Origin: Minutocellus sp. GHC0000111
Lineage: Eukaryota
Reading direction: 5' to 3'
Assembly: GCA_977018835.1 (NCBI GenBank)
Contig: OZ361260.1
Location: 868,001 to 932,000 of the forward strand
DNA length: 64,000 bases
In this document: positions 9,689-61,409 of the stretch, piece by piece
Numbering within the stretch: the first letter of the stretch is position 1
Layout of the letters: each line of letters opens with the position of its first letter
Program-made: the position numbers and the translations under genes
Notes under the pieces: generated by a model
Seen by the model: only the letters and a program-made list of their open reading frames with translations
Databases searched by the model: none
Told to the model about the DNA's origin: nothing

Positions 9689-10429
9689 TCAACGATCCTC
9701 CTGACCGTCAATGTCGACCACCTCCTCATAATAAGTCACGGTCCATGTGTGCCCACCATTCTCCGTCGATTCTCGAGACACTTCGACATTCCGAACTCCC
9801 TTTAGCTGCTGCTCTATCGCTTCTCGCAATTCCTCTGCGCTGGCATCTACCGCAATATCACGTGTAGTCTCCTCTCCAATACTCAAAGTAAATGTCCCCT
9901 CGAGCCCCGGTTCCGCCTCAATGACTTGGATGGTCGGCTGTGCCACATCTCGGGCCTGGATGTAAAATACTGCCTCATCACCAGCCCTACCTCCGCGAAG
10001 ACCGCTGCCGTATGCAGTGGAAGAGGCAGCGCTCACTTCTCCAGGCTCCACATTGACTGTGTACGTCGATCCCGAAACTACTTCACCACTACCACTATCA
10101 CTACCATCAGGCAGCGTCACCGTCCTCACAGTCAACTCGTAGACGCCCTTGTAATACAGGGTGTAGCGAATGGGATGAATGCCATTGATACCGCTGCTAC
10201 TCGTGGAATTCACCGTGTATCCCCCTGGACCAGTCAAAGTCGCAACAAACACATCGTCATTGTTGCCCGTCCTTAAATTGCCATAGGCATCGCGGCTTTC
10301 AATGATGATTCCGCTTTCCACGCCAACAATGGCATCGCCAATGTCTGTCACGACAGAGCTGCCACCATTCAATCCAGCATGACCAACGCGCAAAGTATCT
10401 ACATTCTTCTGGACCTGTTGCAGGTCTCG
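9689..10429 (-). CDS. Fragment of a filamin-Ig repeat giant protein (paralog or displaced segment), running into the assembly gap
   Basis: ORF 9689-10393 has ESRDAYGN, FYIQARD and GTFTLS..T.DIAVDASA motifs of the same kind as the downstream gene, and ends abruptly. Confidence 0.6.
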   Translation of the reverse strand, partial: RDLQQVQKNVDTLRVGHAGLNGGSSVVTDIGDAIVGVESGIIIESRDAYGNLRTGNNDDVFVATLTGPGGYTVNSTSSSGINGIHPIRYTLYYKGVYELTVRTVTLPDGSDSGSGEVVSGSTYTVNVEPGEVSAASSTAYGSGLRGGRAGDEAVFYIQARDVAQPTIQVIEAEPGLEGTFTLSIGEETTRDIAVDASAEELREAIEQQLKGVRNVEVSRESTENGGHTWTVTYYEEVVDIDGQEDR

Positions 10430-10629
10430 NNNNNNNNNNNNNNNNNNNNNNNNNNNNNNNNNNNNNNNNNNNNNNNNNNNNNNNNNNNNNNNNNNNNNNN
10501 NNNNNNNNNNNNNNNNNNNNNNNNNNNNNNNNNNNNNNNNNNNNNNNNNNNNNNNNNNNNNNNNNNNNNNNNNNNNNNNNNNNNNNNNNNNNNNNNNNNN
10601 NNNNNNNNNNNNNNNNNNNNNNNNNNNNN
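10430..10629. other. Assembly gap (200 N)
   Basis: Run of N. Confidence 1.
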
Positions 10630-10632
10630 AAG

Positions 10633-11718
10633 ATGCATGCGTCAGTAGCAGTGGTCTGGGCGGTAGCGCTCATTATTATTAGCGCCGTCGCCCCCGTTGT
10701 GGCATTCAACCCCATCGTATCCCACTCCACTTTTCATCGCCAAAGCTCTACAGCACTATTTTCTGAAGCACATGATGACAGGCGCTCGTTCCTCGAGAGA
10801 GGAGCTACCATCGCTGCAGCAGCGGCAGGCGCAGCATCTTCCTCCTTTGCTCTTGGGCCTACCATTCGCCCGGCGTCGGCAGCATCTAGTACCGATCAGC
10901 CCATCTGTGTCATTGGATGCAATGGTCGGACAGGTACCGAGGTAGTGTCGTACTGCCTCTCAAATGGCATCTCCACTGTGGCCACCAGCCGAGGTGGCGT
11001 CTACAATGCCAAGGAGGATGTTGTTACGAACAGCAACGCCAAATTGCTAAAGGAAATGGTTTGCGACGTCACTGTCCCATCGACAATCGAAGAGGCCGTG
11101 ACAGGTTCGCGTGGCGTGGTATTTGCCGCCAGTGCCAGTAAGCAGGGTGGAACCCCAGCGGCCGTGGACAACATGGGCCTGACCTCAGTCGCAAAGGCTT
11201 GCATTGATGCCAAGGTCCCTCATCTTGTCATTGTATCGTCTGGTGCGGTGACCAAGCCATCATCACCCGTGTATCAGTTCTTGAATTTGTTCGGCAAGAT
11301 TATGGAGGAAAAGATCAAGGGGGAAGACGAAGTTCGGCGACTTTATGCGGAACACAATATGAAAAGTGATGAGAAGCTAACCTACACCGTGATTCGACCA
11401 GGTGGGTTGACACTGGACCCACCCCGAGGGGTCAATGCGCTTGAATTGAACCAAGGTGACACAAAATCAGGTCGCATTTCGCGAGCGGACGTTGCAGCAC
11501 TTTGCGTTGAAAGTATCAACTACCCTCAACTCACCGGCGGCACGACATTTGAATGCTACGACGCTGATACTGGTGCTCCCCTCGCAACGGTCAGTCTCAG
11601 CAATATCGCCAAGAAGAAGACTGATGGAGAGGCATTTGTGTCGGGTAAGGAACGGAGAGGTGCTACGTACAAGGAACTATTCACTGGTTTGGAAACAGAT
11701 GTCGGCTATGCTAGCTAG
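10633..11718 (+). CDS. Plastid (likely thylakoid lumen) NAD(P)H-binding atypical SDR / TIC62-like protein
   Basis: Signal peptide ending VVAF, twin-arginine DRRSFL + hydrophobic + ASA; VIGCNGRTG Rossmann motif; YTVIRPGGL; GRISRADVA. Confidence 0.8.
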   Translation: MHASVAVVWAVALIIISAVAPVVAFNPIVSHSTFHRQSSTALFSEAHDDRRSFLERGATIAAAAAGAASSSFALGPTIRPASAASSTDQPICVIGCNGRTGTEVVSYCLSNGISTVATSRGGVYNAKEDVVTNSNAKLLKEMVCDVTVPSTIEEAVTGSRGVVFAASASKQGGTPAAVDNMGLTSVAKACIDAKVPHLVIVSSGAVTKPSSPVYQFLNLFGKIMEEKIKGEDEVRRLYAEHNMKSDEKLTYTVIRPGGLTLDPPRGVNALELNQGDTKSGRISRADVAALCVESINYPQLTGGTTFECYDADTGAPLATVSLSNIAKKKTDGEAFVSGKERRGATYKELFTGLETDVGYAS

Positions 11719-11728
11719 CTAATATACA

Positions 11729-12172
11729 TGTTAGTCCCAAAATGCGCACTGTCCCAGTTCGCGAACTGGGATCCCAGTTTGCGAACTAGGATTTATTTAT
11801 CCCAGTTTGGAAACTGGGATCATAGGCACAATCTCAGTTTGCAAACTGGGATCAATCGAGAAATAATGAATATTTAGCATGGATGATATCGCCTTTGCTT
11901 CTCCTCGCTTCATTTTTTCATAGTGAAGCAACACAGCCCAAACCTGGTCCAGACGACATTAGTGCCGGAGCTGATACTCAATAAATTGGCATTAGCTGAT
12001 ACTAAATACATATAGTGAATAAATAATAATATCTAGCTAGCTGCTTCTGGCAAATATAAGTCATGAACTGTACATGCATCTGTGCTATGCCGGCATCATG
12101 TTGCTACTGTACCAGTACATGTAGCTTGCAAATTCAAGATATGATGCACAGTGCAACTTGTATTGTAGATAG
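11729..12172 (-). mobile_element. Truncated MITE copy 1 (one TIR), inverted relative to copy 2
   Basis: Starts TGTTAGTCCCAAAATGCGCACTGTCCCAGTT. It is a near-exact reverse complement of ~17426-17859 and breaks off at 12172, directly against LKR/SDH coding sequence. Confidence 0.9.
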
Positions 12173-15100
12173 GAATCAGTATACCCTTTCGATTTTCCAG
12201 ATTACCGCTCAGCAAGTGATCGGCACCAACGGCGGCAGTATAACCGACCGTCTTGCACATGGCCGACATTTTGTCATCCCCGTAGAGCTGAAGGCTCGAA
12301 AGGTGTGTTTCCTTTCTACCGATGTCGAAGGTGGCCTCAATGTTGTGATGCATCAGCACCATGTCGCGCTCGTCGTCTTCAAATCGCAACTTGGCTTCAA
12401 GCTGGTCGCAGAACGATTGGGCTACGCTAAGTGGATCTGAAATGGCAGCGTCTCCTGTCATGTCCAGAAACTTGAGGCAGGCGGCGGCCTTGGATGCAAC
12501 GGCCTTGTCTCCGTCCGAGCACGAGATTAGGAAGCTCTTGAGGTCGGGAAATCCTTGCTGATCCTGGAGGACCGAAAGCGTCTCGCTCCAGGTTCGTGCA
12601 TCAACTTCGAGAATCCGTTGAAACGGAGGGTTCCACGAAAGATGGTCTCGGCGCCTTGGATACCATATTTATCGGCATAGATGAGAGAGTTACGATTGGG
12701 TAGAACCTCAAGGTGGAGCTGTGGCCAGGCTTCAAAGGATTGAGCGGAGGCCAGAAGATTGGCGCCCTCAACGCTCACAATGTCACTGTTCATCTTGTAC
12801 AGGGCATCATTTTGACTTGCCCTGAGCACTCCCATGGGACTCCAACTGAACTTGTACATGAGGGGATTGTTCGCAGCCTCCGGCGCAGGAAGACCGCCAC
12901 AGACACTTGAAAAGCCGATGATGGTACCGCCCCGGTCCTTGATGCCATCGATGATCTTCATTGCCGACATGTGATCCATTCCTATTCATGATGGTAAGGT
13001 GGGGGGTACCAGATAGAATTGATGGCAAGAATGTAAAATAAATTATCGACTGGTATGGTTGAAGCGAAAAAAAGTACAAAGGAAACCAATGCGAACTCAC
13101 CAGGATCAAGACCAACTTCGTTCAAAATGGAAATGTCAGCTTGCTCGCAGCTCTCTTGTAATTCACTAATCTCAGGACTGACGTAGGACGCAGTTACAAG
13201 ATTTGTTCGATTTGTGATGCATTCGTTTGCAACCAGGGGGTGCATTGGGGCCGGCAGTAACGAAACTACTACATCCGCATTCTTCACTAGTTTCGATAGA
13301 CCCGATATGTCAGAGCCTACATCTAGAGTGACTGGCGTTCCTCGGAGAGCTTCGCCGGCGACTGATTGAGCCTCGTTCTCCAGTTGGGATGCTACGACGA
13401 TATTGCGCCTTGTTGACCGTCCAAGGTATTCGGCGAGGCTAGCGGCAACTCGACCCGCCCCAAGAACAAGAACGGTCTCTTCCTTCTCCTTCTTAACGAT
13501 TGCCTTTCCTTTCTTTCTCCCCTTTTCGATAACAAGGTCGAATGTCTGCATCGAAGCTTCTGCCGCGACGATAAGATCCACCAAAGCCTTTACCTTCGAA
13601 TTCACCTTGTTCACGACGCCTTTGTCCTTTGCTGATACCCTAAGCAACACATCAGACTTCTCTGGCATCCCCTCGACTTTGCGCTTCACATTACACTCTT
13701 GAAACTCAAAGTGACAATCCTCGTGCTCCATGACATCCAGCACTTGGTTGATCAAGCCTGAATCGAACAAGTGTCCTTGAAGAGAAATCAACATATGAGG
13801 ATCGTGCGTATCAACGCCTCCCGCATGATCTCGCTTCTTCAAACACTCGGTGATATACTCGAATGCAGGAGTCAAGTAGCCCTGAGTGGCTATGCAAGCA
13901 TTGGCGAGCTCGGCCGGCATCCCTTCACCTACATCTTGTAGACTCTTGGCCTTGCTGGTGCCCTTGGCGACAATAAGACGTTCCATGAGCGGAATCAGAG
14001 CATCGCCAAAGTGTTTGCTGCTCTCCCTGGGAAGTTCGGTCGGTAGAATATCAACCCCCATGACTGCAACGCCATCGCCGGAGATGTCGTCGGACACCTC
14101 ACCCGTGATGGGGTCATACTCGAAGTATGGCTGCTCAACGGTAGTTGCCTTTTCAAGGAATTCTATGCATCCCTCCACGTCGCAGCTAATATCAGCAACC
14201 GCGAAGAGGCGGCGGTTACCCTTCTCGTAGAGCTCTCGCATCTGGTCCTTGGTAAGGAGGCGAGGGAATCGTTCATCCCAGTAGATACCGTTGACAATGA
14301 CATTGATATGAGGAGCAATCTCCTCAAAGAATGTGGACTCGTAGCACTGGGGACTCGTTAGGTAGTGTTCCTTGTTGAACTTGGCCTCGGGAGATGGGTT
14401 GGATTTCCGGCGGACAAGATCCTCTGCATTGAGCTGGATTCCGTACACCACCTTTTGTGGTCCCTTGAGTTTGCGGATTTCCGAAATCTCGTCTTTCGTG
14501 ATCATCTTGTGAGGTAGAAGCTTAAATATCTCGAGAGAGCCCTGGGTACCATTGCCCCGTCCTGTGTAGGCAAAGATGAGTGGTTCCAATCCCTCGGGAA
14601 GACCGCCAGAACGTTCCATCAGTTCACCGATACGGGCTATTCCTGCCTTGGCATCGTCTAAATTGTCGTACATGTACGCAGGGGGACAATTTAGAAAGGG
14701 AGTGGAGTAGCCACTGGCAAGCAATCGGCGACCAAGTGCTTGAAGTCCGTCAATCATACCGGCAATACCAGCATATTTGCCAAATGCCACCAGACGCCAC
14801 TTCTTGTTGTCGTCGAGCTCTTCGTTGATGCATTCGTAGTCAAAAAGCTGGATGTTCTTGTCTAGGATGGACTTCATCAGCGGCATTGAGGTTGGTTGGC
14901 CCTTGATTACTGCGAGTTACAGAAATAAATCGAATGCAGGGAAAAAATTGAATTAAAATCAAAAATATCCAAATACCAGAACTGCATGGTATATCTAGCT
15001 AGCTACTAGTCAGGTAGTTGTAGATAAGATATCGATAACGGTCGATTCACTGACCATGAGAAAAGAACATGTATGACTTGTCAGGAATGAGATGGTCCTC

Positions 15101-15540
15101 TTCGACCTGCTTGACTCCAAGGATGAGGTCGGCAGTAGACAAATCCTCTGAAATCGTCGCACCGGCTCTGCGGTACTCCTCATCCGAGAAGATTCTGAAG
15201 GAAGCTGCCTGAACTACGACATTGGACAGCAGATCGCGACTTCCACCGAATTTGGTCAGGAGCTGCTCCACGTGCGAGGGGCAGAGAGGTGTCCTGCGCT
15301 CCCACTTATCATAGGTCTCGCGGACGATGCCAATGGTCAGTCCATCATTGCTGGCGCCAGCAGAATTCTTTTCGGGCGACGTCCCAAAGTAGCGAGCAGT
15401 GCGAAGGGCATGTTGCACAGCTGGAATGGGTAGGCCTGAAGCCGCAATGGAAATAATCGAAGGAGCTCTATAAAAAAAAACGTTGGCCGAACCATGCGCC
15501 TTGCAGCGGTGGTAGCGGCCATGGTAGTTGTGGACATCAT
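12173..15540 (-). CDS. AASS: Bifunctional lysine-ketoglutarate reductase/saccharopine dehydrogenase (alpha-aminoadipic semialdehyde synthase); this copy appears damaged
   Basis: GIVRETYDKWERRTPL, FFSH|VIKGQ, VAFGKYAG, DISCD, VLVLGAGRV, NEVGLDPG|MDHM, CGGLPAPE, YKFSWSP. Introns ~14910-15054 and ~12982-13101. Frameshifts at A9 15472-15480 and at ~12595; C-terminus replaced by a MITE. Confidence 0.92.
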
Positions 15541-15985
15541 TTGAGAATTTCGTACGATTGTCAATCTCAATCAAGCGGAAGATATTGTAGGAGCGAAGGG
15601 CGCGGGAGATGACAAGAAGATGTTGTTTCGTTGCTTTTGCGAAAGTTCGAACGAATACGAGGCAAATAGAGATGAGAATTGGACGATCGGCTAATGGAAG
15701 GACCAGGGGAGAAGGACGGCAAAGATCGTTGGCTACGACGGCCTCGACTGCAATTTCGTCATGCTTTCTGCCTCTCGCTCGGCGCCGCCTTTCAGAACAA
15801 TTTTTTTTGCGCGTTCCGGATGAGAAAGCGTCAAGCCTTGCAACAGTCGAATAAGTCAATCTCCAAAATGAGGCTCGACCAAAGCACGCAAGCATGAATC
15901 TTTGCATAGCCCACCGGTATTTTCTTTTCTTCTCGCCGTTCTTCGGGAAGGCAGCAAACATACTGAGCTCTAGAGTAGACCAACC

Positions 15986-16921
15986 ATGGCGGCGATCGGC
16001 ACCAGAGCGGCATATTCTGCTCTCGTTCGCCAGGGATGTCTTATCCCCAGCCGTTTCGTCGGCGTTTCCTCCACGCCAGCAAAAACAGCACAACTCACCA
16101 GACACACAACATTGCGACACACATCAAAAACGTCCGCAACAAACTTCTGTGCGGCCCACCCGGAGGATCGTCTCAAGGCGGCAAGGAGGAAGGCGCGGGC
16201 TGATCTTGGTTTGCCGGATGATGGCGATGACAAAGATACCGCTGATGATCTTTCCACAGCAGCAGCACGAGATGTGTCCGTATCAGCGAAGGCCCATCCC
16301 GAGGACCGTCTCAAAGCGGCACGACGAAAAATGCTGGAAAGCATGGGGCTGACAGTCGATGGGGATGGCAATGTCGTTGAATCCCGGGCGAGTGCACCAA
16401 CTTTAACATCCGTCGGAAATTCCAATTGCAAGGATACCGATGAATCTGCTCCTCTGCCGATCTGCGCTCAAAACAACCACCCAGATTATCGGCTGAAAGT
16501 AGCAAGGGAGAGGATGTTGGCCAAGGTGAAGGGAGATGCTGGGGTCGGCACTGATATTACTGCTGCTGGTGGCTCGAGCCTTTTGCTGAAGCCGCCACGG
16601 ATCGACCTGGAAATGTCCCCCGATCGGAGGCTGCGTCTGGCCCGAACCGAACAGGCGGCAAAGCCAATCCAGACCTTCAAACCTATGAAAAGGAAAAAGA
16701 GACGTCTCAAGAAAGGCGCTCTCCTTTCGAGACTTACATGTAGCACGGAGCAGCCGCCCCTCCTGCGCAACGATGGGTATTCGTCTGGATCGGTAACTGC
16801 CATGAGATTGCGACAGGCAAGGCACGACGCCATTGAGCGTCTCTTGGTTTCTTCGTCGTCGGCTGATGCTTCCTTGTTGTCGTCGTCTGCATCGTCGAAA
16901 GAAAAAGACACAAGATCGTAG
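15986..16921 (+). CDS. Hypothetical protein with HPEDRLKAARRK-type repeats
   Basis: 311-aa ORF with 4-5 copies of (H)P(E/D).RL(K/R).AR; start codon uncertain. Confidence 0.55.
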   Translation: MAAIGTRAAYSALVRQGCLIPSRFVGVSSTPAKTAQLTRHTTLRHTSKTSATNFCAAHPEDRLKAARRKARADLGLPDDGDDKDTADDLSTAAARDVSVSAKAHPEDRLKAARRKMLESMGLTVDGDGNVVESRASAPTLTSVGNSNCKDTDESAPLPICAQNNHPDYRLKVARERMLAKVKGDAGVGTDITAAGGSSLLLKPPRIDLEMSPDRRLRLARTEQAAKPIQTFKPMKRKKRRLKKGALLSRLTCSTEQPPLLRNDGYSSGSVTAMRLRQARHDAIERLLVSSSSADASLLSSSASSKEKDTRS

Positions 16922-17130
16922 CGAGGTGGAATTCTTGTAGGAATTCCTACATGTAGCTTTTGTAATTAACACATTGTAGACCCAAGGATGATTCAATGCA
17001 ATCCACAAGCACAGTGCATGTATTATAGTACCGGTGCCGGTACCAGTACATGAAGGAACTTACCGGCGCCGCAGATCAAAGAAGAAAAGCACCAGGTATT
17101 TATTGCCTGCTGTTGTCCATTTTATATATA

Positions 17131-17859
17131 TGTTAGTCCCAAAATGCGCACTGTCCCAGTTCGCTAACTGGGATCCCAGTTTGCGAACTGAGATTCATTT
17201 ATCCCAGTTTGCGCACTGGGCCCCAGTTCCCAAACTAGGATCTCAGTTTGCGCACTGATACTACCAGAATGGAAACTGAGATAAACACGCCAATCCGAAT
17301 TTGGGAACCAGACGAGTTCGCGAACTGGAACAAAAATGAATACCAGTTTGGAAACTGGCATTCTCGGCAAGTGTCAGAATGGTAACTGCCGGTGTTGGCT
17401 CATGCACAATGATTATGTACTGGTAGATCTATCTACAATACAAGTTGCACTGTGCATCATATCTTGAATTTGCAAGCTACATGTACTGGTACAGTAGCAA
17501 CATGATGCCGGCATAGCACAGATGCATGTACAGTTCATGACTTATATTTGCCAGAAGCAGCTAGCTAGATATTATTATTTATTCACTATATGTATTTAGT
17601 ATCAGCTAATGCCAATTTATTGAGTATCAGCTCCGGCACTAATGTCGTCTGGACGTCTGGACCAGGTTTGGGCTGTGTTGCTTCACTATGAAAAAATGAA
17701 GCGAGGAGAAGCAAAGGCGATATCATCCATGCTAAATATTCATTATTTCTCGATTGATCCCAGTTTGCAAACTGAGATTGTGCCTATGATCCCAGTTTCC
17801 AAACTGGGATAAATAAATCCTAGTTTGCAACTGGGACAGTGCGCATTTTGGGACTAACG
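17131..17859 (+). mobile_element. Full-length MITE copy 2 (non-autonomous TIR element, ~730 bp)
   Basis: ~30-bp TIRs TGTTAGTCCCAAAATGCGCACTGTCCCAGTT ... AACTGGGACAGTGCGCATTTTGGGACTAAC(G); subterminal palindrome arrays; TA at both flanks; no coding capacity. Confidence 0.93.
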
Positions 17860-18193
17860 TACATATTGTAAAGTACAAAATGCCTAAAGATATACGAGCG
17901 AGCCGGCCATGCATTTCTGCCTCACAATGGTTAATACATGATGGTCGAGGGAACATGCGCCGTCCATCGCGCTCCTCTTTTGACCAAGTGATGACTAAAA
18001 CTGGAGAGGTGCTCTCCTCGACCCATTCCACCAAGAAGAGGAAGAAATCGCATTGGGCGGAGACTGTATGCCTGTGCTGAGCGAGGAGGCCTACAATTTT
18101 CACTGTTGGCCGCAACTGTTCCTTCTTGCTACCGTTCGATCATTCAAAGATAAACCTGCTCCTGCCTCCATCCTGACTGACTGATCCTTCAAT

Positions 18194-51005: not shown

Positions 51006-51079
51006 TTCCAAAAAAAAGAGAAAACAACTTGAATTCATACAGACGACGCCTGTATATTATTATATATAAAATGTATATA

Positions 51080-51823
51080 TGTTAGTCCCAAAATGCGCAC
51101 TGTCCCAGTTCGCGAACTGGGATCTCAGTTTGCGCACTGGGATTTATTTATCCCAGTTCGGAAACTGGGATCCCAGGCACAATCTCAGTTCGCAAACTGA
51201 GATCGATTGACAAATAATGAACACTTAGCAAGGATGATATCGCCTTTGCTTCTTTTCGCTTCATTTTTTCATTCGGCCAAAGAATGGAAAGCATCGTCAT
51301 TTGCTCTGATCCCGGCGGCGGCGGTGACAACGGGGTAATAGCAATGTTGATGTTGCTGACATTTGTATTGGCCACCGCCGCTTTTGTTATTGTTGCTTTT
51401 CGTTGATAATTTACATTTATTTTATGATGCACAGTGCAACTTGTATTGTAGATAGATCTACCAGTGCATGTGCATGCATGCAATTTAGTTGATAAACGAT
51501 TACGTAGATTCTACTTATACATGTACCTAGGTACAAAATAATCATTCTGCATGAGCCAACACCGGCAGCTACCATTCTGGTACTTGCCGAGAATGCCAGT
51601 TTCCAAACTGGTATTTATTATTGTTCCAGTTCGCAAACTCGTCTGGTTCCTAAATTCGGATTATTTTATTTATCTCAGTTTCCATTCTGGTAGTATCAGT
51701 GCGCAAACTGAGATCCTAGTTTGGGAACTGGGGCCCAGTGCGCAAACTGGGATAAATGAATCTCAGTTCGCAAACTGAGATCCCAGTTCGCGAATTGGGA
51801 CAGTGCGCATTTTGGGACTAACA
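51080..51823 (-). mobile_element. Full-length MITE copy 3, inverted relative to copy 2, with a different interior
   Basis: TGTTAGTCCCAAAATGCGCACTGTCCC ... GGGACAGTGCGCATTTTGGGACTAACA; flanks GTATATA| and |TATATAC. Confidence 0.93.
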
Positions 51824-52184
51824 TATATACACCGGAAGCCTGGCTGTTAGATCTACATGTACATATTCAGCAAGTCCACATCATCCACAAAATATAGATA
51901 GCACTCGATATTTATAAATCCTATAATATATTGATAAAACCTCAACTCTTACACCACACTATGCTACATATGATACGGGCCATTGATTAGGCAGGCGCTG
52001 ATCTTCATGTGCAAGTCTCACTTTGAGACTGGCCGATGCTCTGAGGGAGGTGGCTTCTCGGCTCGTCACTCCAACAAAGGACATGGTCATTATGAGCAAT
52101 TCCGAGGTTATGAGAAGTGGCCCAGAATTCACTACGAGTAGAACAGGCGAATCATTGATGTTTTGACTTTGTGACCTATTGTCT

Positions 52185-53006
52185 TTATGCCTTATGCGAC
52201 TTCAAGATAGTTGGAAATCTATAATAGAATTTAGTTACACACCGTGATTCTCTGCGTTCTTGGTTCTTGGTTGCCAAGGCAACAATAGTAAATCGCAGTT
52301 CTCCCGGATCTCTCTGCATAAATTTATCAACGACGCCGCAGGCATCTCTGAGAAATGATGCCTCCTCTGTAGGTCCATGATGAATCGGCGCTTCCTTTCG
52401 TCCATCTAGCTCGTAAAGTCCTCCGTCGACGTTGACCAGTGCGACGAAATGGGTATTGACAGCATCCTCCAGGCTACCACGGCCAGTCTGATTGGCATCA
52501 TCAGAAGTCGCGGCATCGTGCATGGTCTCAATTTCTTGATCTGATTCCAGAATCGAAGCCTTCTCGGTTGGGCTAAGGGTGTGAGGACACTTCGAGTAGA
52601 AGCGGTCCATCCAAGAGCCCTGTTGGATGAGGCCGTCCTTCCCACCTCCCGGTACAGCCGTGGAGAGGTTGCCAAGTGCATGGAGGATTCCGATGGTGCC
52701 ACAAGCGTTGCCAATCCGCTGCTTCATGTACCAAACCTTATCGGACACCTGCTGCTTGGGTGTCACATCCGTGTTCTCGGCCGCCCTGTGCGCCTCTTGC
52801 GGCGGAGAGATGGGGTAGAGCATAATAACAGCCGCCACCGGTTGCGGCACCATTTCCAGCGCCCAATCCTCAGTAGAGAAGACATCGACGAACTCCAACT
52901 GGTTGGTGTCGAGACCGAGCTTGCTGATGTATGAATTGAGCAGAGGGGGATTCGATTCGAGGGGGAACCACCGCCCAGCGTCCACTCGTTCCTCCTTGTC
53001 GGTCAT
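52185..53006 (-). CDS. Ubiquitin C-terminal hydrolase, family C12 (UCH-L3-like)
   Basis: WFPLESNP, MKQRIGNACGTIGILH, HFVALV, LYELDGRK. Confidence 0.93.
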   Translation of the reverse strand: MTDKEERVDAGRWFPLESNPPLLNSYISKLGLDTNQLEFVDVFSTEDWALEMVPQPVAAVIMLYPISPPQEAHRAAENTDVTPKQQVSDKVWYMKQRIGNACGTIGILHALGNLSTAVPGGGKDGLIQQGSWMDRFYSKCPHTLSPTEKASILESDQEIETMHDAATSDDANQTGRGSLEDAVNTHFVALVNVDGGLYELDGRKEAPIHHGPTEEASFLRDACGVVDKFMQRDPGELRFTIVALATKNQERRESRCVTKFYYRFPTILKSHKA

Positions 53007-53111
53007 GGTCGTGCTGTGCGGAGATGATATCGATATGAGGGAATTGTGGGTACCGCACGGTGGGGATGAGCTGGCGACGGTGGTTAGCAGCAGGCACTAA
53101 AACTGCATTCC

Positions 53112-53277
53112 TGTAGTGCCCAGTTTTTCTGCTGACCACCACCTTCGCCTCCTCTCGTCTCAACTGACCAAGCAAGCCACAACCATCTGCGATTGCTGCC
53201 GTTGCAATTGCTAAGTCAGCTTACAGTACCGGCTCCCAGAGCCTGTCTCTCTCTCTCTCAGTAGTTCGTTAGTTTTA
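53112..53277 (+). repeat. Left terminal inverted repeat (166 bp)
   Basis: TGTAGTGCCCAG...GTTAGTTTTA is the reverse complement of 59511-59670 apart from a 4-bp duplication, one extra TC unit and one substitution. Confidence 0.97.
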
Positions 53278-53304
53278 AATTCCCTCAAACCCGTCTAAGA
53301 AGTT

Positions 53305-55441
53305 TCATTTGCCGGCGGCATCACGAGAAAGAGAATCAGCCTCCGGATTGCGCTTCCCCTGGAACCACTGTGAGTGCAGCATGGTGTTGGTCTCGATGAG
53401 CATGTCGGCTAGTTTCCGCGCCGTGGCCAGCTTGACCGCTACGTCAGCATCCTTCTCGCCGTGAGACACGAAGTTCGACTTCCTGAGCCATCCCTCGGCC
53501 GTGGTGCTGTCGGTCCCCGACAGCACGCAGGAGAGGGGGTTGGCAGGTAGGTTGCCCTCGATGTGGTCGATCCATGGGCCGATGACGGCGGCGAGGAATT
53601 CCAGGTAATTGAGGGTGAACCGGCCCCATAGCTCCTCGGGGAGGGCAAATCTCCACGCTCTGCCGGATGAGGACCATCCGCCGATGCCGTGCTCGCAGGA
53701 GGCGTCACTCATGCACTCGTGGGTGGGGCAACGGCACGTGAGGAGGTTCATGCTCATGCCATCGGCGGCCCTTCGGAGGAAGCGGAGCCATAGGTTGAGG
53801 TCTTCTGCATCCTCAGAGTCGAACCGTTGGCGGCCGTGGCGGCGGGCCTTCCAGAGCAGATCCCGAAGGCGGCTGAGGAAGTGTCGTGCGGCTGGAACGA
53901 TGCATCCGACGTGGTTTAGCCTTCCGACCAAGGTGTCCAGCTCTGATCTGGTGGCGCCGCGGGCTCTGAGGAGCCGAAGTGTGTCATCGCGCCAGGCCAG
54001 GTGCTTGCTCCAAGGGAGCCTCAGCAGGAGCCGCCGGGTGTCAGCATCCCACCCCAAGAGACACAGTGCTTCGGAAGGCAGGCGTCCCCTCGGCGAGCAG
54101 CTTCTTGATGGAGGCAAGGTCATCTCTGGGCAGTGGCTCGCTGTCGGATGCCGGTCGGCCAAGCGCGTGGATGGCGAGGAGGGTGGCAGCGGATGTCCGA
54201 TCCTTGTTGTCGCCCAGGTCAGGGGCTGCGGCGATGGGGTCATCGATGCACGGCTCGACGATGCCATCCTTGTTGTCGGGAAGGGTTGCGATCATGTCCA
54301 GGGCCGGCGCGAACGGTGCATCGTCGCCCTCCACCTTGGGGCGACCCAAGTGCTTCTGCTGGGGGCCATGGAGCTCTGATGGGTCCCAGTCCAAGCATTG
54401 CAGGAGGGCCCTGGCCAGGTCGGCCGCCGATTCGGACACATTGCACCATTCGCTCGGGCAAGGGCAGCCGCCGAAAGTCAGCCGGAGGGACATGAGGGCA
54501 ATGCCATCCAGGGTGGTGATCGTTTTGACGGCCGTGCTGGGAGCCAAGTGGGCCCGGCGACACGCAGCCTTGAAATCGACCTTCTGCAGGAGGATGGGAG
54601 CACGGGGATGCTTGTGACGGGCGTCTGCGATGTAGTGGATCACTCGCCGGAGGGCATGGCCGAACACCACTGGCTGGTGGTCCTCCATGCGTGCTCTGTT
54701 GTTGACGGACCGTGCGGCACCGATCTCGAAGGATTGGTCGTGAGTCAGGCGGTCCTTGGGCATGATCTCGCCAGCCTCGCTGATCGTGTTCTGTGCTGCC
54801 AAACCCATCGGAGCCACCTCCGCTCCAGGAATGAGGGGCGCGACCTTTGCTGGCAGAGGGAGGGCGAAACTGCGGGTCACGTCGTCGAGAACTTGGTCCT
54901 TGAGCACCTCCGGCCTGTCCCTGGCCGATTTGTGGTTGCCTCGGCCGATGCTCTTTGTCACGCTGTCCAGTCTGCTTTCGTCGCTCACCGGATCGAGGGC
55001 CCAGTCGGATCCACTGTCGAGAATGGAGCGGAAGCGGGACCACAGCGGGTGCCGGCCAAGAATCGGCTCCAGAAGACTCAGGTCTCTGAACTCCGATCCC
55101 GGTTGGAGTGGCGACCCGCCCTGCGCCTCGAGTGCCCTGCTCAGAGAACGATCGCATTTCTTGAGGACCGACCAATTGTGAGCGGCGGCCTCCGTCAAGA
55201 GCTCAAATCTGAACTCCGTGGGCTTCGGTGTGGCCGACGGGGAGACTCGACTGCTCGTCGGACGTGCTGCACCAAGGTGGAAACATCGAAGATGGGCTCT
55301 AGTTCCCACGTGGAATTGCATGAGGCGAGAAAAAGGTGAGATGTGTGCATGCTGCACGTTCACGAGCATGCGGGTCTGTCCGACCGTGGTGGGCCCATTG
55401 TGGGCGCTGGGCTGCCCCGTTTGTTGCAGGTGTTTCTTCAC
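53305..55441 (-). pseudogene. Reverse transcriptase-RNase H of DIRS type, inactivated
   Basis: KDRLTHDQSF, KVDFKAACRR, LRLTFGG, CIDD (for YIDD), LLGW, LVGRLNH, SDAS, NYLEFLA, TDSTTA, NPEADSLSR. Frameshift from a 4-bp duplication at 54076-54083. Confidence 0.88.
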
Positions 55442-55954
55442 CTGTTGGTCTCACTTGCCATTTTGGCGTGTCGGTTCTGCTTCCTTGCTGTGCGTAGGGG
55501 AACCAGGGGGAGACTGTGCTTCGGGTTGGGGCTGCTTGCCTAGGAGATCCTTCTCTCGCTGGCCTAGCCGGTCGAAGAGGTTGTCGGTGGCTTCCGCACC
55601 GCCAGCGTCAGTGGTGCTGGAGCCAGAGCCTGAGATGCTGTTGTCGGCGCAGGCATCACCGCTGGTGTTGGGGGGACCAGGACCCGACCGAAGGTCACTG
55701 CTAACGCCTCGGCCTTCTGCTCCGGCATTAGGGGCACCGGAGAGCCTGGATTGGTTGCTGATGTCGTTGCGACCGCACACGCCGGATTTTGGGGTGCCGG
55801 ACAACCTTGGGCGGCTGGAGCCACCGGGGCGGATCGACGCCGACGTGTCTGGCTGCACTCGACGGCGCTTGGAGGGACGAGCTCGGCCGGCTGGCCGAGA
55901 TGTTTCTCCAGCATCCTCCGAGGGTGGGCCACGCCTCCGTGCCCACCCGATCCG

Positions 55955-57922
55955 TCATTCCTCCGCCTCCTCGCACTTCCGATCGCATTTCTCGACGCAC
56001 TGCTCGACGGGTCCTCTCTCCGACGCCTTAAGAGGCTTCTTGACATGCGACTTCTTGAGCTCACACGAGGATCCGGCGCCGCAGACACCTATCAGGATGA
56101 ATGGAGGGCAGAATTTACAGCCATTAATTTCAGGTCTGTCCTCATGGGGCTCGGATTTCTTGCCATGCCGTTTTGCAAAGTTGCCGGGGTTGATGTCGAA
56201 CGTGACGAAGTGCTCGCACTGCTGGTGGGCTCTGCCGCTGGCGCCGCCCGTCTTTTGCTTCTTTTTCGGACTGGTTCTTGGCTCTGATTTGTCGGAGTCG
56301 GAATCCGAGGAAGGGGTGGGAGCGTCGGCCGATTGGACGAGCTTGATGTGGCTGGGGTAGACGAAAGGACTCTGAGTCTTCATCATCTTTTTGGACTCGT
56401 CGGCCATTGAGAAGCAAGAGAGGTCGTTGCCGGCGTCGTCGGGGGAACGGAGACAAGCTTTCCAGAATGCATGGATGGAGGCGTCGACATTGTGGAACAT
56501 CGCCAGCCAGAACTTCTCGCCATGGCTCTCGGCGATGTCGCGGTGCTGGTCCTCGTGTGTCTTCATGTGACTGAGGACCCTGGCGACGTAGCGAGCGGGC
56601 TCGGAGTCCTCTCCGGCAAGGAAGGAAATGCCAGCGCCGAAGGCCGAGATGTGACGTTTGGCACCGTCGTGCTCGGTTGGGGACCGGCAGCTCTGCTTCA
56701 GAAGAGCCTTCACCTGAGTCGAGGCATGTCCTTTCTTTTGAGAGGCGGCGAGGCAAAGGGGCGCATTGCTGCTGCTGGAGTTTGCCGGGCTAAAGGCGAA
56801 GACAGAGAAGCCATCGCAGATTTTCTTGTCGCTCTTCCCGAAGCCAAAGAGGCGGACGTAAGTGGTGAGGCCCTGGAGAGATGTCCTGACTCCGGTCTTG
56901 CCCTTTACATGCAGCTCGAGGCCGACGGCTGCTTGCGTGAGGTTTGACTCTTCCAGCAGTGCTTTCAATCCTTCGGGAAGATTCGAGTCGATCGCTGCTA
57001 CATCATCGTCACACTCGGTCGAGACCCGGCAGAAAGCGGCACAGGCCTTGAGGATGGCGCCATTCATCGAGTGCTTCTTGTCGACCTTGTCAGTGCAGGC
57101 CATGACTGCGCCGGTGAGGGAGGATGCTTCGGACGCGGCCCTAGTCATGGCGTTGGCCGCGGTAGCAACTGCAGAGTCGGTCGGGGCGCCACCGGCTGGT
57201 GGTCCGTCGCCACTGGCGCCAGTGATGCACCGAGCGTGCATCTCACGGGCGCATGTCTTGAGAGCCGGGTCCGTCGTTGGGTGCAAGCTGACGGCCGGGA
57301 TGTCACCTTGGTCGGACGTGGCGACGAACCACAGCCACTTGACGACGTGTTGAACAGCCTCATTGGAGCGAAGACCTGCTGCGCCATGACCCTCGTCGTC
57401 ACCGCTGTCTGATGCGTCGTCGCTGCCGGCGTCCTCATCCAGCCGACGTTTGATGGCGGACAGGATGGCCCAAGGCGATGCCTCGTGCTCTTCCAGAACA
57501 TTCTGCAGAATCGAAGGTGGCAGCAGCACAAGGGACTTAAACTTCGTGGAGGCACTCCGGTGGCGGGTGTTGGAGCCTTCCTGGGTGAGACCGGTTAGGG
57601 CGGCTTCTGACGGTGCCCCCAGCATGGCTTCCACCGATGGGGCTAGGACCTCCTTGTGCCGCAAGAGGCTAGGTTGGGCCAACGACATTGCCGGGGCTAC
57701 ATCGTCGATCCCGAGGAGCCCACCCAACCTGAGGTCGGGCTGCATGGTGGTGCCTCCCTGAGCCACGGCATGGTGAATCACCATGACTTTCCCTTCTGGA
57801 TGGTGGGCCAGCATGGACAAGCCCTCGGCGTCGCGGATTTGCTGCTGGATCGCTCGGGCATGGCTCTGGACCATGGCGGCCGTGGGGTCGGTTTCACAGA
57901 CGTTGTCAGGCAAGGTGATCAA
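55955..57922 (-). CDS. Gag-like ORF of the retroelement
   Basis: 655-aa ORF upstream of RT with a C-terminal Cys/His knuckle (FCPPFILIGVCGAGSSCELKKSH); only 3 Tyr. Confidence 0.6.
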   Translation of the reverse strand: MITLPDNVCETDPTAAMVQSHARAIQQQIRDAEGLSMLAHHPEGKVMVIHHAVAQGGTTMQPDLRLGGLLGIDDVAPAMSLAQPSLLRHKEVLAPSVEAMLGAPSEAALTGLTQEGSNTRHRSASTKFKSLVLLPPSILQNVLEEHEASPWAILSAIKRRLDEDAGSDDASDSGDDEGHGAAGLRSNEAVQHVVKWLWFVATSDQGDIPAVSLHPTTDPALKTCAREMHARCITGASGDGPPAGGAPTDSAVATAANAMTRAASEASSLTGAVMACTDKVDKKHSMNGAILKACAAFCRVSTECDDDVAAIDSNLPEGLKALLEESNLTQAAVGLELHVKGKTGVRTSLQGLTTYVRLFGFGKSDKKICDGFSVFAFSPANSSSSNAPLCLAASQKKGHASTQVKALLKQSCRSPTEHDGAKRHISAFGAGISFLAGEDSEPARYVARVLSHMKTHEDQHRDIAESHGEKFWLAMFHNVDASIHAFWKACLRSPDDAGNDLSCFSMADESKKMMKTQSPFVYPSHIKLVQSADAPTPSSDSDSDKSEPRTSPKKKQKTGGASGRAHQQCEHFVTFDINPGNFAKRHGKKSEPHEDRPEINGCKFCPPFILIGVCGAGSSCELKKSHVKKPLKASERGPVEQCVEKCDRKCEEAEE

Positions 57923-57929
57923 TGCTCGA

Positions 57930-59474
57930 TCACCTTGCCTGTCGCCTTCGGCGTCGGTCCTCTCGGCGCTGGATGTGGTTCAGATCGGCCGTGAGGGTGA
58001 GGATGCGGTCGGCGATGTCGGGCTCTCCAAAGGCGGATAGAAGGATGTTGAATGCCTGACGCGGTGGCTCTGACACCAAAACATCGGCGGTGACATCTCG
58101 CAGGCGGATAGGTGCCTCGAGATCGTCGGGGCGCCGGTGAATTGATGCTCTTGGCCAGACGCGGTAGTGGGTGCCCTCCCAGCGATTTGGATCGGCCGTG
58201 TCGTCTAGCCACCTCGGACAGACTCGATGGTAGGTGCCTACCCAGCGGTGTGAGGGGGACGCCGTTAGGTCTGCCAGCCTTCCCCAACATTCGTGCGGGT
58301 TGACCTCCACTCGGTGTCCAAGAGGATTGCTGTCAGGCCGAGTGTGTCGGAGTCGAGCGCTGGTGAGGCTCTCGAATCCACTGTCCCAGTTGATAATAGC
58401 TTCAGTGAGTTGGTCCGGTCGTAGGCACTGCCGTCTCTGGAACGGGTGCGGCGAATCCAGCGGGAACTGGGTGATCAGGGCGAAAGGGCCGATGAGATCT
58501 CCCCTCGCTCCAATGCCACACTGACGCCAGCCCGCTCGGTTCGGTCGTGTGCGTCACGTGGGTAGAAGAGTGGCCTTACCTCCCACTCGAAATAAGTGAG
58601 CGGCAGCGTTGGTGGAAGCTCGCTCCCCCGTGAACCTGTGCAAGTGCACGCTCTAGAGGTCTGCCCTCTCTGGCCGCGATGCGCCGTCTTTCTTTTCGGC
58701 CTGGTAGTGGAGGATGCACTGCGTGAGCCGGCAGAGCTGGGGCCAGATGCAATGGTGTTGCCGCGCTGCTGCTACCGATGCCTCCGGACACCTTCGCCCC
58801 CGACACTGTTGAACCACGACGCCTCCGTCTGCCCGTGGCAGTCGGCACAGTGCACTGCTCAGGTCCAACTCAGTTGCCGTCTCGTGTGCCCGGCGGATCT
58901 CAGGCTCGGCAAGGCGCGTGGCTATCAGCCAGATGTTGACGAGGTGCGTGGGCCAGTCCGGTGACACCAAGAAGGCTTGTTGCTCGAGGCACTCGGCGAC
59001 CAGACCGTGCGCTACTGGAGTAAGGTGTGAAACGGCTGCTGCTGGGGATGGCTGGTACCCCGTGGCTCTCGATGGGAGGTAGCCTGTGGCGCGCTCGACG
59101 AGATCGGTGAGGTGCTCGGTAACGTCGATTCGGCCCTCGGCAAAACTTTTCCACCAATCCAGTGCGTCTGTGGTCAGTCTCTCGGACAACGCCCTGGCTG
59201 TGAAGAAACTTCTGCGCCCGGGCCGAATCTGACGTCTGAGTCTGTCCCAGCCTCGTGGAAGGTCAGGAGAGTCTCCTCGGACGATGAGGTCTCTTGCCAC
59301 TCCGAACAACACGTGATCCAGTTCCGGTCGATCTGGTTCGGCCATGCACTGTTCTGCCGTCGTAGAGACTGGTGTCGGATCTACGTGCACTATCAACGGA
59401 GCTGAGCCGTGGCCGTTTGACTCCGGAGTCGACTGCGGTCTCTGGACTAACAGCAGTGGTGGTGTGTCGGCCAA
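57930..59474 (-). pseudogene. Interrupted unknown first ORF of the element
   Basis: Co-oriented ORF pieces 58653-59474 and 57930-~58550 inside the TIRs; no motif recognised. Confidence 0.35.
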
Positions 59475-59510
59475 TAATTACGAACTCGTAGAGTAGCACC
59501 AACCTAATGC

Positions 59511-59670
59511 TAAAACTAACTAACTACTGAGAGAGAGAGACAGGCTCTGGGAGCCGGTACTGTAAGCTGACTTAGCAATTGCAACGGCAGCAATCGCAGA
59601 TGGTTGTGGCTTGGTCAGTTGAGACGAGAGGAGGCGAAGGTGGTGGTCAGCAGAAAAACTGGGCACTACA
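59511..59670 (-). repeat. Right terminal inverted repeat (160 bp)
   Basis: TAAAACTAAC...CTGGGCACTACA. Confidence 0.97.
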
Positions 59671-59904
59671 CATTTACCGCCAATGCCAGCTCCAGTTCAC
59701 GTAGTTAAATTGCATTTCATGTTCTACTAAGTTGCATAGAGTTGGGAGAATCAGCGGAGGGAGGCACTGTGTTCGATGTATCATCGTGAGGGGCGCGGCG
59801 GGCGGCGGGGGGCACTCGAGATTATTGCTGGTCCCCGCCAAGAGGAAATCCCGAAATCGATCCCAGACACCACCATGCTCCATGTGATGAAGGAGAGGCA
59901 GGGA

Positions 59905-60915
59905 ATGAAGTGGTCGATGTTACGAGCTTTGCACCGGCTGGTTTTCTTGCTACTCACAACCACTTCCCTGGTTCAAAGCTTCGCAATCCAAACATCAGCT
60001 GATCTCGTCACTCTGAAAACGGCCATCCTTACACCCAGTCGCAACAAGGACGCCACGTCAGTACCTTTCCATGCAATAGTCGAACAACAAGAAGGTTCCA
60101 CCATATTGTTCTCGTCTGACTTTGTCCCTCGAAGAGAAATTAGCTTGTCCAAGCACAATGTGGGAAGAATCAGTCGGCACAACGATTGCATAAGTCTGTT
60201 TGACGGGTACTCTTCAGAAGTCAAGCGATGCCAGGCGATCGACGACAACACACTCAACGTTAGGTGGAGGGCAACGTGGATCCCAGCTGGGTCCAGCTGG
60301 TTGTACAATTTGGCCAATTCTTGTGGGTGGACTATCGAGAGTCGTTCGGCAGATCCCTGCAAAGTCTCCGCTTTCTCTTGGAAGCCTGTCTATTCCATGT
60401 TTGCCAATGCTCTTGCGACTGGAAACATTACTTTGCCAATAGCGGAAGCGGAAGGCAATACGGTCGTTGCAATACGAGATGATGGTGCGATAGCAGTAAC
60501 TGAATCAATTGACTTGGTCAAGGAAGCGGATGCTGGGCGCTTACTGAATAGGCGCGTTGCTCAAGAGTTTGCATCCTGGTTGGATGTGTCTCGCCGACCA
60601 GACGAATGTGGGATTAACGAAGACGAGTGGGCAGGCATGGTCCGCGAGCGAATATTGTTGGGCGTTCCAGGGGCGGGATCGCTTGATGTTGACCCCAACG
60701 AGGATGATGGAGAGGATGCCGCAGCGCTGCTAATATTTGGCGCCTTTTGTTCGATAACTCTTGCCCTTTCCTTTCAGTACTTCGTTGCTCCAGAGATTGT
60801 AGGTGGGACAGGCACGATTTCAGCTCAATGCGATGATGCAGCTCGAATTGAATTTGGATCTGGCTATTTGAGCGAATGCTTTGGTCCATACGGTGATGGT
60901 CCTTTTGTAAGATGA
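59905..60915 (+). CDS. Hypothetical protein with signal peptide (possible plastid presequence) and C-terminal TM helix
   Basis: MKWSMLRALHRLVFLLLTTTSLVQSF; LNVRWRATW; TM segment AALLIFGAFCSITLALSF. Confidence 0.65.
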   Translation: MKWSMLRALHRLVFLLLTTTSLVQSFAIQTSADLVTLKTAILTPSRNKDATSVPFHAIVEQQEGSTILFSSDFVPRREISLSKHNVGRISRHNDCISLFDGYSSEVKRCQAIDDNTLNVRWRATWIPAGSSWLYNLANSCGWTIESRSADPCKVSAFSWKPVYSMFANALATGNITLPIAEAEGNTVVAIRDDGAIAVTESIDLVKEADAGRLLNRRVAQEFASWLDVSRRPDECGINEDEWAGMVRERILLGVPGAGSLDVDPNEDDGEDAAALLIFGAFCSITLALSFQYFVAPEIVGGTGTISAQCDDAARIEFGSGYLSECFGPYGDGPFVR

Positions 60916-60962
60916 TATCTACATAACTTATAATCTATTGTAGTGCTGAACAATTTTGACGA

Positions 60963-61409
60963 TCATTTTGTGGTTACAATCTTTGCACAGCACATGGGAC
61001 AATCATCTCGGTTTTGCAGAAGCCAAAGCGTGACGCAATTTCGATGATAAATATTCCCACAACATTTGCCTTGAACTATTCTCCCGGAATTTTCTGGCTG
61101 CTGATAACCACAGAGGCAAAAACAACATACATCATCTATCGCCACATTACTCGATGCATCCACGGTGAGAAGATCTCGATCAACAACCTGCTTCATCGCA
61201 ATCTCCTGCTTTCTAGTTAATGCAACTTCTTCATGTGGGCACGTCATCCATGGACATTCAGGCCAGATTATCCCCTCACTTTCATGCCATCGCACCTCCA
61301 AAAATCGCGTTGAGAAGTACAAAGACATGGCGAGGATGAACCAAATGACGGAGAGAATTGACGCATAGTTCGCCAGAACAGTAGTGAGATTGCATGTGTT
61401 GCAATCCAA
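60963..61409 (-). CDS. Membrane-anchored RING-H2-like E3 ligase (5' end unresolved)
   Basis: CCFCL...CCGNIYHRNCV..WL....DCPMC downstream of a TM segment. Confidence 0.6.
   Translation of the reverse strand: MDCNTCNLTTVLANYASILSVIWFILAMSLYFSTRFLEVRWHESEGIIWPECPWMTCPHEEVALTRKQEIAMKQVVDRDLLTVDASSNVAIDDVCCFCLCGYQQPENSGRIVQGKCCGNIYHRNCVTLWLLQNRDDCPMCCAKIVTTK

Follow-up and report, generated by a model that had tools for sequence, protein, structure and literature searches.

The window analysed here, a stretch of 64,000 nucleotides, carries a degenerate retroelement inserted between a ubiquitin C-terminal hydrolase (UCH) gene and a second host open reading frame (ORF). The features of the locus, in coordinates of the window, are as follows:

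52185–53006, − strand: UCH host gene (Pfam PF01088, E 5e-58)
53044–59786, no strand: whole inserted unit, 6,743 bp, delimited by the empty-allele joint 53043->59787
53044–53111, + strand: segment Y, a true terminus; outer 68 bp of repeat A (rE if read as in DIRS1)
53112–53277, + strand: segment T, copy 1, the left terminal inverted repeat (TIR) of the first-pass annotation; likely the inner part of repeat A2
53278–53314, + strand: 5-bp spacer and start of repeat B, from alignment to segments b and X
53315–53320, no strand: breakpoint, from loose contig ends and sister proteins
53317–55341, − strand: reverse transcriptase (RT)–RNase H pseudogene with frameshifts near 55242 and 54076
55342–57900, − strand: gag-position ORF, called gag-like from its position only
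57907–57941, no strand: 35-bp imperfect palindrome found by self-BLAST, where the family has 102 other letters
57930–59477, − strand: ORF1, an extra ORF upstream of gag, frameshifted in the window and ~450 aa long in a relative
59511–59670, − strand: segment T, copy 2, the former right TIR, lying upstream of ORF1; likely corresponds to the inner portion of repeat A1
59671–59786, + strand: segment X, a true terminus formed by the outermost 116 bp of repeat B (lE if read as in DIRS1)
59875–60915, + strand: flanking host ORF with no assigned function, head-to-head with the UCH gene and at single-copy depth

Insertion site and ends of the element

The empty site, for which the first-pass annotation had proposed to search, was found in contigs of public runs: position 53043 is joined to 59787 in X1 (depth 85.2) and likewise in X5 (depth 6.83 of 13.5), while in X4 the left-flank contig continues into the unit up to 53068. 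The insertion, which lies 37 bp upstream of the likely UCH start codon, is polymorphic between samples. Comparison with the empty allele revealed no target site duplication (TSD) at 53044/59786, one T being ambiguous; no TSD had been seen at the ends of the inverted repeats, and it is absent at the true ends as well. These ends sit 68 bp (left) and 116 bp (right) outside the repeats that had been taken for the ends of the element. In other contigs different flanks are joined at 53041–53044, one X5 contig joins the end of X to 53044, and the sister protein P0083 translates across the exact 59786|53044 junction, terminating in the translation of 53046–53069 within Y. The ends of the window copy match this end-to-end junction of the family to the base, so the copy was probably inserted by the normal route. 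They also speak against the proposal that a TIR pair of a DNA transposon had captured a retroelement.

Repeat segments

The two copies of T align as an inverted repeat over 166 columns (53112–53277 and 59511–59670; E 1e-71) with 1 substitution, a 4-nt and a 2-nt indel, which confirms the three differences first reported. No further copy of T was found in the window. T reaches a contig depth of 7,135 in X1 and 10,921 in X4; with flanks at 85–116 in X1, and with T missing from the empty allele, the concern that one repeat is an assembly fold-back of DNA upstream of the UCH gene can be set aside. The left copy was also where a full-depth T contig was placed, although this required a 4-nt gap, which is weak evidence for split direct repeats.

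To the right of T copy 1 and the spacer, a 20-nt piece termed b with three extra bases (53283–53305) is followed by nucleotides 1–9 of X, in which one A>G change is present (53306–53314). Aligned to b+X, the region gives 28 matches in 32 columns and a score of 44, compared with a mean of 25.9 and a maximum of 36 for shuffled sequences (n = 100). An X4 contig starts exactly at the first base of b, and loose contig ends of 17 and 20 nt were found before 59671, the X1 end having 17 nt and not 20. The X4 joint 53314->59761 was considered as a deletion allele of the window locus, but an 80-bp deletion inside b+X fits equally well, so this joint was set aside as evidence; so was the X5 joint 53318->59523 (depth 4.8). 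Searches with Rfam and ARAGORN gave no match, so X and Y are not tRNA-like or other known RNAs.

Collapse of repeats by the assembler at a real insertion site is an extremely improbable explanation of the inner arrangement. Many similar copies exist (see below), and the private junctions 53315 and 59670|59671 are spanned by no contig among the 32 of 4,364 pieces listed; however, the two outer junctions are consistent with the empty allele, the left one with support from X4, and an assembler would not invent a 9-bp breakpoint duplicate with a TpA>TpG change or microduplications in the copies of T.

Coding regions of the window copy

In the pseudogene, the YIDD-type motif of the RT reads CIDD, and RNase H ends with ADSLSRDAAGK*, ~28 bp from the left repeat, as the first-pass annotation had described. 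Direct Pfam and PDB sequence searches for RT and RNase H gave no match. RVT_1 is carried by 37–52% of the members in Atlas clusters, and a structure model of the relative P0012 (47% to the window RT) matches the RTs of CaMV, MLV, foamy virus and Ty3 (best E 6.6e-9). By these matches, RT and RNase H are of the LTR-retroelement type.

From 53315–53320 on, the window copy lacks three parts that the family has, namely the tail of RNase H, the ORF for the recombinase and the internal B1-A2 junction; the family's continuation of RNase H is seen on loose contig ends that precede 53321 in X1 and 53316 in X7. No recombinase domain was seen in the window, in agreement with the earlier reading: in the tblastn output of the first ~41 of 118 relatives, closest sisters included, only the non-coding end segment was hit.

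The gag-position ORF comprises a 674-aa open stretch (55955–57979) followed by stops and has no significant Pfam match; a Cys/His-rich stretch near 56050–56120 was noticed by eye. For ORF1, 12 relatives were obtained at E<=0.001, including P0321 (451 aa, 47%), with neither a Pfam nor an Atlas match. The palindrome at 57907–57941 is a private rearrangement of the window copy, and a joint 57907->57914 is seen in contigs of X1, X4 and X7.

Related copies and their tyrosine recombinase

Interior contigs have depths of ~2,100–2,900 versus the 85–116 of the flanks (X1), ~20–30 times the flank depth; as a rough guide to copy number, this gives a multi-copy family of about 25 similar copies. Each of the 23 sister proteins containing the ADSLSRD motif extends beyond it and none ends like the window copy, a count biased by the retrieval of most proteins with the RNase H tail or its clusters. 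In several sisters, RNase H is followed by an overlapping tyrosine recombinase (YR) and then by an internal copy of the 59786|53044 junction. The recombinase is linked to RNase H in P0065, P0069, P0072, P0074, P0079 and P0080, and the recombinase-bearing sisters show 93–99% protein identity; it was on the absence of such copies that the first-pass annotation had made its reading depend. Eight sister tails run from YR through b to X, and P0083 goes on from X to Y. X+Y as a separate small element entered by the TIR unit is ruled out, since in sisters it lies after the recombinase. The family often shows internal deletions, for example in P0320, where ORF1 is fused to the recombinase on one strand.

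Among the recombinase relatives, the residues R, K, H, W and Y are invariant (53 of 53) and the arginine of HxxR is present in 50 of 53. The predicted fold of the downstream ORF is Cre-like (pLDDT 87.5; match to 4crx with E 5.1e-8). PF00589 matches 8 of 13 recombinases, only below the curated cut-off (best E 7e-6), and neither of the two closest sisters; PDB sequence searches were blank. The motif HSIRSGAA...GRWSS...YIR is presumably Ngaro/PAT-like. By the predicted fold, the invariant catalytic residues and the linkage to RNase H, the family has a tyrosine recombinase instead of a DDE integrase, and the window copy is without it.

The methyltransferase (MT) motif [NDS]PP[FYW] occurs in 0 of 11 RNase H tails and Dam (PF05869) matches none of 18 proteins, limits that a very divergent MT could escape; the RNase H tail is disordered in the structure model. 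Scans of viral and prokaryote contigs gave no related locus. A metagenome match (L001) to the first 20 nt of the repeat was a 22-nt chance match with nothing else shared.

The window copy belongs to the DIRS order and has lost its recombinase. To this extent the idea of a YR-deleted DIRS element mobilised in trans holds; its trans mobility is unlikely because the internal junction copy is lost and, in the available part of PMC7192593, DIRS-1 requires its internal complementary region (ICR) to complete retrotransposition. More generally, it is highly improbable that the recombinase-less inverted-repeat form is itself mobile, be it as a non-autonomous family moved in trans, as a TIR pair with a dead retroelement or as a new architecture. 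Whereas the polymorphism between samples suggests a recent insertion, the unit has its ends beyond the TIRs, at the junction of the retroelement itself and without TSD, its truncation is shared by none of the sister proteins of the biased sample mentioned above, the junction required in cis (shown for DIRS-1) is gone, and the window holds no other T. A new TIR-retroelement architecture is not supported.

Decay of the window copy

X1 and the window differ at 81 sites over a 9.1-kb stretch, ~1.2% of the element, and the two T copies differ from each other by 3 events in 166 columns. With an interior only this far from the family, the contrast of near-perfect ends and a heavily mutated interior, on which the first reading had relied, disappears. 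Judged from the sequence, TpA>TpG/CpA hypermutation is part of the decay; TpA is depleted whereas CpG is not (o/e 0.9), which rules out CpG decay as the sole cause of damage. The 9-bp duplicate of X at the breakpoint took a later TpA>TpG change, and the T copies differ by microduplications typical of the family.

Origin of the inverted repeats

The window shows the order Y-T-spacer-b-X(1-9), followed by an opposite-strand block T-ORF1-gag-RT-RNase H and by X(1-116). An inverted, 3′-truncated block thus lies between two copies of the 9-bp piece of X, inside an A-B shell. We consider it probable that the element is a dead, recombinase-less Ngaro-like copy in which the block from A1 to RNase H was inverted inside this shell. 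The inverted repeats would then likely correspond to both A repeats of an element with split direct repeats, brought into head-to-head orientation by a single rearrangement event, and the inverted arrangement is probably secondary. In no other copy does a contig or read phase an outer segment (X or Y) to the interior through the 160-bp T, and we therefore infer the native orientation, with a layout A1 (Y+T, ~230 bp)-ORF1-gag-RT/RNase H-YR-B1 (b+X, ~136 bp)-A2-5 bp-B2.

According to the mechanism in the literature, the intact element would be transcribed and reverse-transcribed, a circle would be rebuilt with a B|A junction equal to the internal B1-A2 junction, and this circle would be inserted by its own recombinase without TSD. 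The inversion may have arisen, likely via template switching in replication or repair, followed by decay largely through TpA>TpG/CpA changes and 2–4-nt tandem duplications. Split direct repeats are suggested by b+X(1-9), whose place after the left T on the + strand is the one expected of B2 after A2; the X4 contig start at b is where B1 and B2 would merge. Against this, a contig start at b is also expected if b+X is part of a longer inverted repeat in intact copies, and the inversion takes two or three template switches.

The main alternative is an element with native ends of the DIRS1 type, that is, reverse-complement X, inverted T repeats, an ICR (X+Y) after the recombinase and reverse-complement Y, from which one post-insertion deletion removed the RNase H tail, YR and ICR. 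The X+Y junction of the sisters is indeed the reverse complement of both window ends, in the order lICR-rICR as defined in the part of PMC3266345 at hand; a single deletion accounts for the window copy, and such internal deletions are frequent in the family (P0320). We nevertheless regard this origin as unlikely, though deserving serious weight. Three features lowered its rank: the direct copy of b+X(1-9) next to the left T calls for an explanation of its own, no MT was found in the family, and, as regards repeat lengths, the 116- and 68-bp extensions and an ICR of up to 184 bp were all counted as beyond the ranges in that source. In addition, the NTT trinucleotide would fall on the strand opposite to the usual one. 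Rather doubtful is a variant in which the whole family has DIRS1-type inverted ends and an ICR on an MT-less Ngaro-type core, the start of B by the 3′ inverted repeat being an inversion scar.

Implications

As a dead copy the window element matters little, and the claimed new architecture is removed. For YR retrotransposons it gives the caution that the best self-matching repeat need not mark the end of an element. On the preferred reading of a one-off inversion in a Ngaro-like copy, an element with split direct repeats can acquire a DIRS1-like outline through a single inversion; should intact copies have this outline too, it would bear on how DIRS1 ends originated. If the whole family had such DIRS1-type ends on its MT-less Ngaro-type core, it would be a living intermediate from split direct to inverted repeats, not observed so far according to the accessible part of PMC4157794, and, within the literature searched, the first stramenopile element of DIRS1 shape. 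From a probable diatom, the family adds a Ngaro-like group that has an additional conserved ORF; among the papers listed in searches on diatom or stramenopile YR retrotransposons, none described one in diatoms. The element also adds a further case of mobile DNA affected by TpA hypermutation.

Comparison with known systems

TIR DNA transposons have TIRs at their very ends and a TSD, whereas here the ends lie outside the repeats and no TSD exists. A TSD-less insertion at a junction copied inside the element, as in the DIRS order, is documented by the empty allele, P0083 and the X5 contig.

As assembled, the window copy resembles DIRS1-like elements in its inverted repeats, outer extensions complementary to the internal junction of the family, and lack of a TSD. 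In contrast to them, the family shows no MT domain in pol (a very divergent one could escape) and has longer extensions and a longer junction copy, and the window copy keeps a direct copy of the start of B but neither ICR nor YR. DIRS1-like elements, in the portion of PMC3266345 available, have lE up to 28 bp (among the rows listed), rE of 9–75 bp and ICRs of 85–130 bp, compared with 184 bp for X+Y, and HSTR in 13 of 28.

TpA-directed hypermutation has been published for Bigelowiella natans, in the passages of bioRxiv 10.64898/2026.01.13.699255 searched, where the word "diatom" does not occur. Both cases share TpA>TpG/CpA changes on both strands and TpA depletion in mobile versus host DNA, but the target here is a retrotransposon family of a probable diatom and the evidence a standing footprint, not a rate.

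Ngaro elements are defined, in the part of PMC4157794 seen, by split direct repeats, by internal repeats that follow YR and by the lack of an MT. Stramenopile examples are Ngaro1-4 of Cafeteria burkhardae (PMC8547959, in part) and the 15 families of Ectocarpus, for which the available part of PMC12477816 lists Ngaro and PAT-like but not DIRS1-like families. The present family likewise has a gag-position ORF, RT-RNase H and an overlapping YR with HxxR and the catalytic Tyr; no MT was found after RNase H (11 tails, 18 proteins; a divergent one could escape), and internal repeats, including the end-to-end junction, lie downstream of a same-strand YR (8 sister tails; P0320). GC-rich insertions of 6–7 kb, 10–30 copies, deleted variants and A-B remnants are further likenesses. 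The family differs from Ngaro by an additional ORF of ~450 aa that precedes gag and by a long insertion ahead of the YIDD motif of RT; the window copy differs further in having lost YR and in carrying its coding block in inverted orientation within the A-B shell. The layout A1...B1-A2-B2 is not present in it as assembled, with an A-B succession at the left end. The family is probably Ngaro-like by domain content and inferred repeat layout, not by placement in RT or YR trees.

Ends of the element and insertion site

Contigs from four public sequencing runs (X1, X4, X5 and X7) were compared with positions 51900-61000 of the window. In X1 and X5, an empty allele was found in which 53043 is joined to 59787, while the left junction of the insertion is present in X4. 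The inserted unit is 53044-59786, and the insertion is polymorphic. The two inverted-repeat copies (T; 53112-53277 and 59511-59670), taken as terminal inverted repeats in the first-pass annotation, are not the ends of the element: the unit extends past them by 68 bp on the left (Y, 53044-53111) and 116 bp on the right (X, 59671-59786). The absence of a target-site duplication (TSD) noted there holds for 53044-59786.

Features of the inserted unit and its site
53007-53043 + 59787-59874: insertion site, a ~125-bp gap between the UCH gene and a head-to-head ORF
59477-57930, minus strand: ORF1, broken frame upstream of the gag position
59670-53315: T-ORF1-gag-RT-RNase H block, between two X(1-9) copies and probably inverted (Ngaro-type reading)

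The insertion may split a promoter common to both head-to-head genes. Depth of the X1 contigs was ~2,100-2,900 in the interior versus 85 and 116 in the flanks, and the family therefore comprises very roughly 20-30 copies. In the RNA run X7, element depth also exceeds flank depth, although contigs cannot establish expression.

Coding content

Self-alignment of the window confirmed the near-perfect inverted repeat, with one substitution and two indels in 166 aligned columns; no T copies beyond these two were found across the window. The minus strand between them carries three broken reading frames, namely ORF1, a gag-position ORF and RT-RNase H, none of which received a name from Pfam. The identity of the RT is backed by 68 relative proteins, of which a single one has a named source, Fragilaria crotonensis; Atlas clusters that carry RVT_1 and the predicted fold of a relative also support it. 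Taken together with the gene context, this named relative makes a diatom the probable host. GC content is 59-64% in the element versus ~50% outside. ORF1 is an extra ORF conserved in a 451-aa relative (47% identity), with no match in Pfam or Atlas. In another ORF1 relative, P0319 (69% identical), the C-terminal end corresponds to the translated start of Y, suggesting from sequence that this terminal segment was kept in a related family via internal deletion or nested insertion.

Recombinase in the family

This copy is truncated. Its RNase H frame closes at ADSLSRDAAGK*, in line with the stop just after ADSLSRD described previously, and contigs of X1 and X7 depart from the window at 53321 and 53316, carrying the RNase H continuation. 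The RNase H end motif occurs in 23 of 328 proteins, all 23 of which continue (22 in frame, one shifted); the window's stop is shared by none of them. This sample is biased, most having been retrieved with the RNase H tail or its clusters. A second, overlapping ORF follows RNase H in six of them. Among 53 relatives of this recombinase ORF, R166, K217, H303, W329 and Y337 show no variation, with R306 present in 50. Its structural model (pLDDT 87.5) has Cre as its best match (E 5.1e-8, TM 0.52/0.64), and PF00589 was found in 8 of 13 proteins tested, each time under the cut-off. The reported lack of a recombinase thus stands for the window, where tblastn with the first ~41 of 118 queries gave no match to a recombinase domain, but not for the family, whose sister copies carry a tyrosine recombinase (YR).

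Age and decay

Between the X1 contigs and the window there are 81 differences (79 transitions), corresponding to ~1.2% of the element. As the T copies differ by three events in 166 columns, the ends are no younger than the interior, contrary to the earlier picture of young ends around an old interior. TpA observed/expected ratios were 0.06-0.24 in four 1-kb windows from 53316, followed by 0.34, 0.41 and 0.63; across 53 windows outside the element they averaged 0.59 (sd 0.12), the lowest being 0.30. CpG in the element was at 0.9. This TpA>TpG/CpA hypermutation (53316-57315) is weaker in ORF1 and the terminal repeats. The 31 events at 38 listed places in the element comprise 15 TA/CA/TG, nine CG and seven others, with 54 further places outside the count. 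Relative to the intact-looking P0084, 37 of 57 Tyr positions in nine sister proteins were changed, to His (22) or Cys (15) and nothing else, counted as aligned cells and not as independent events. In some copies (P0072-P0091), the losses include the RT YIDD motif and the catalytic Tyr of the recombinase. Excerpts of bioRxiv 10.64898/2026.01.13.699255 report the same pattern in Bigelowiella natans.

Most of 10 window-specific insertions examined in context (sites including 53169, 53538-53545, 53697, 54076, 55242, 56217 and 58501) are 2-4-nt tandem duplications, and doubled residues are frequent in sister proteins. Such duplications could have been left by repair connected with the hypermutation, or else reflect a type of assembly error.

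Other features of the window and runs

An inverted-repeat element of ~750 bp with TA-rich flanks is present in three pieces (11721-12172, 17124-17867 and 51072-51831). Pieces 11721-12172 and 17429-17867 form near-identical inverted arms enclosing ~5 kb of host genes, possibly an element-mediated inversion. The left arm adjoins the 3' end of the minus-strand ORFs 12096-16123, which by eye resemble a lysine-ketoglutarate reductase/saccharopine dehydrogenase. An N run (assembly gap) lies at ~10430-10630 within ORF 10309-11718. Runs covering at least half of the stretch, RNA runs among them, carry the labels organism A, sponge metagenome or marine metagenome.

Internal junction and comparison with known YR elements

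Eight frameshifted sister proteins extend beyond the recombinase stop, first through a 20-nt piece (b) and next into X. P0083 reads the whole of X directly into Y, with the crossing exactly at 59786|53044; the identical join is present in a contig of X5. The family therefore holds an internal copy of its own end-to-end junction, matching the ends set by the empty allele. In the window's orientation this copy is complementary to both ends, like the DIRS1 internal complementary region (ICR) described in part of PMC3266345. The parts also fit the Ngaro layout A1-ORFs-B1-A2-B2 (PMC8547959, section 11, and PMC4157794, both in excerpt), taking A = Y+T and B = b+X.

We regard a native Ngaro-type layout, with the T-ORF1-gag-RT-RNase H block inverted inside the A-B shell, as the probable arrangement. 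It is favoured because the left end carries Y, T, 5 bp, b and X(1-9) all on the same strand (score 44, versus a mean of 25.9 and a maximum of 36 in 100 shuffles), because a contig in X4 begins at base 1 of b (3 nt further on in X1), because a methyltransferase was found in none of 11 RNase H tails, because segment lengths exceed DIRS1-like ranges, and because the YR families listed for Ectocarpus in an excerpt of PMC12477816 are Ngaro and PAT-like. Native DIRS1-type ends followed by a deletion, to which we give rather little credence, would explain the complementarity of the junction copy, and the X4 contig start would likewise be expected if intact copies had a longer inverted b+X; moreover, no other copy phases X or Y with the interior across T, and the native repeat order of the Ngaro-type reading is one that we infer. 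The one-strand b and X(1-9) after T, the missing methyltransferase and the long segments speak against such ends. The boldest reading, in which the family as such stands midway from split direct repeats to inverted ones, has a slightly lower probability again.

Under the favoured Ngaro-type layout, the recombinase would have inserted the element via a circular intermediate, and template switching would have inverted the coding block. Instead of the new architecture raised initially as one option, the window holds a broken copy of an ordinary kind of element, a new family member from a host group with few descriptions. Further movement of this copy is very unlikely because it no longer has the junction template; according to the available portion of PMC7192593, DIRS-1 required the ICR to complete retrotransposition.
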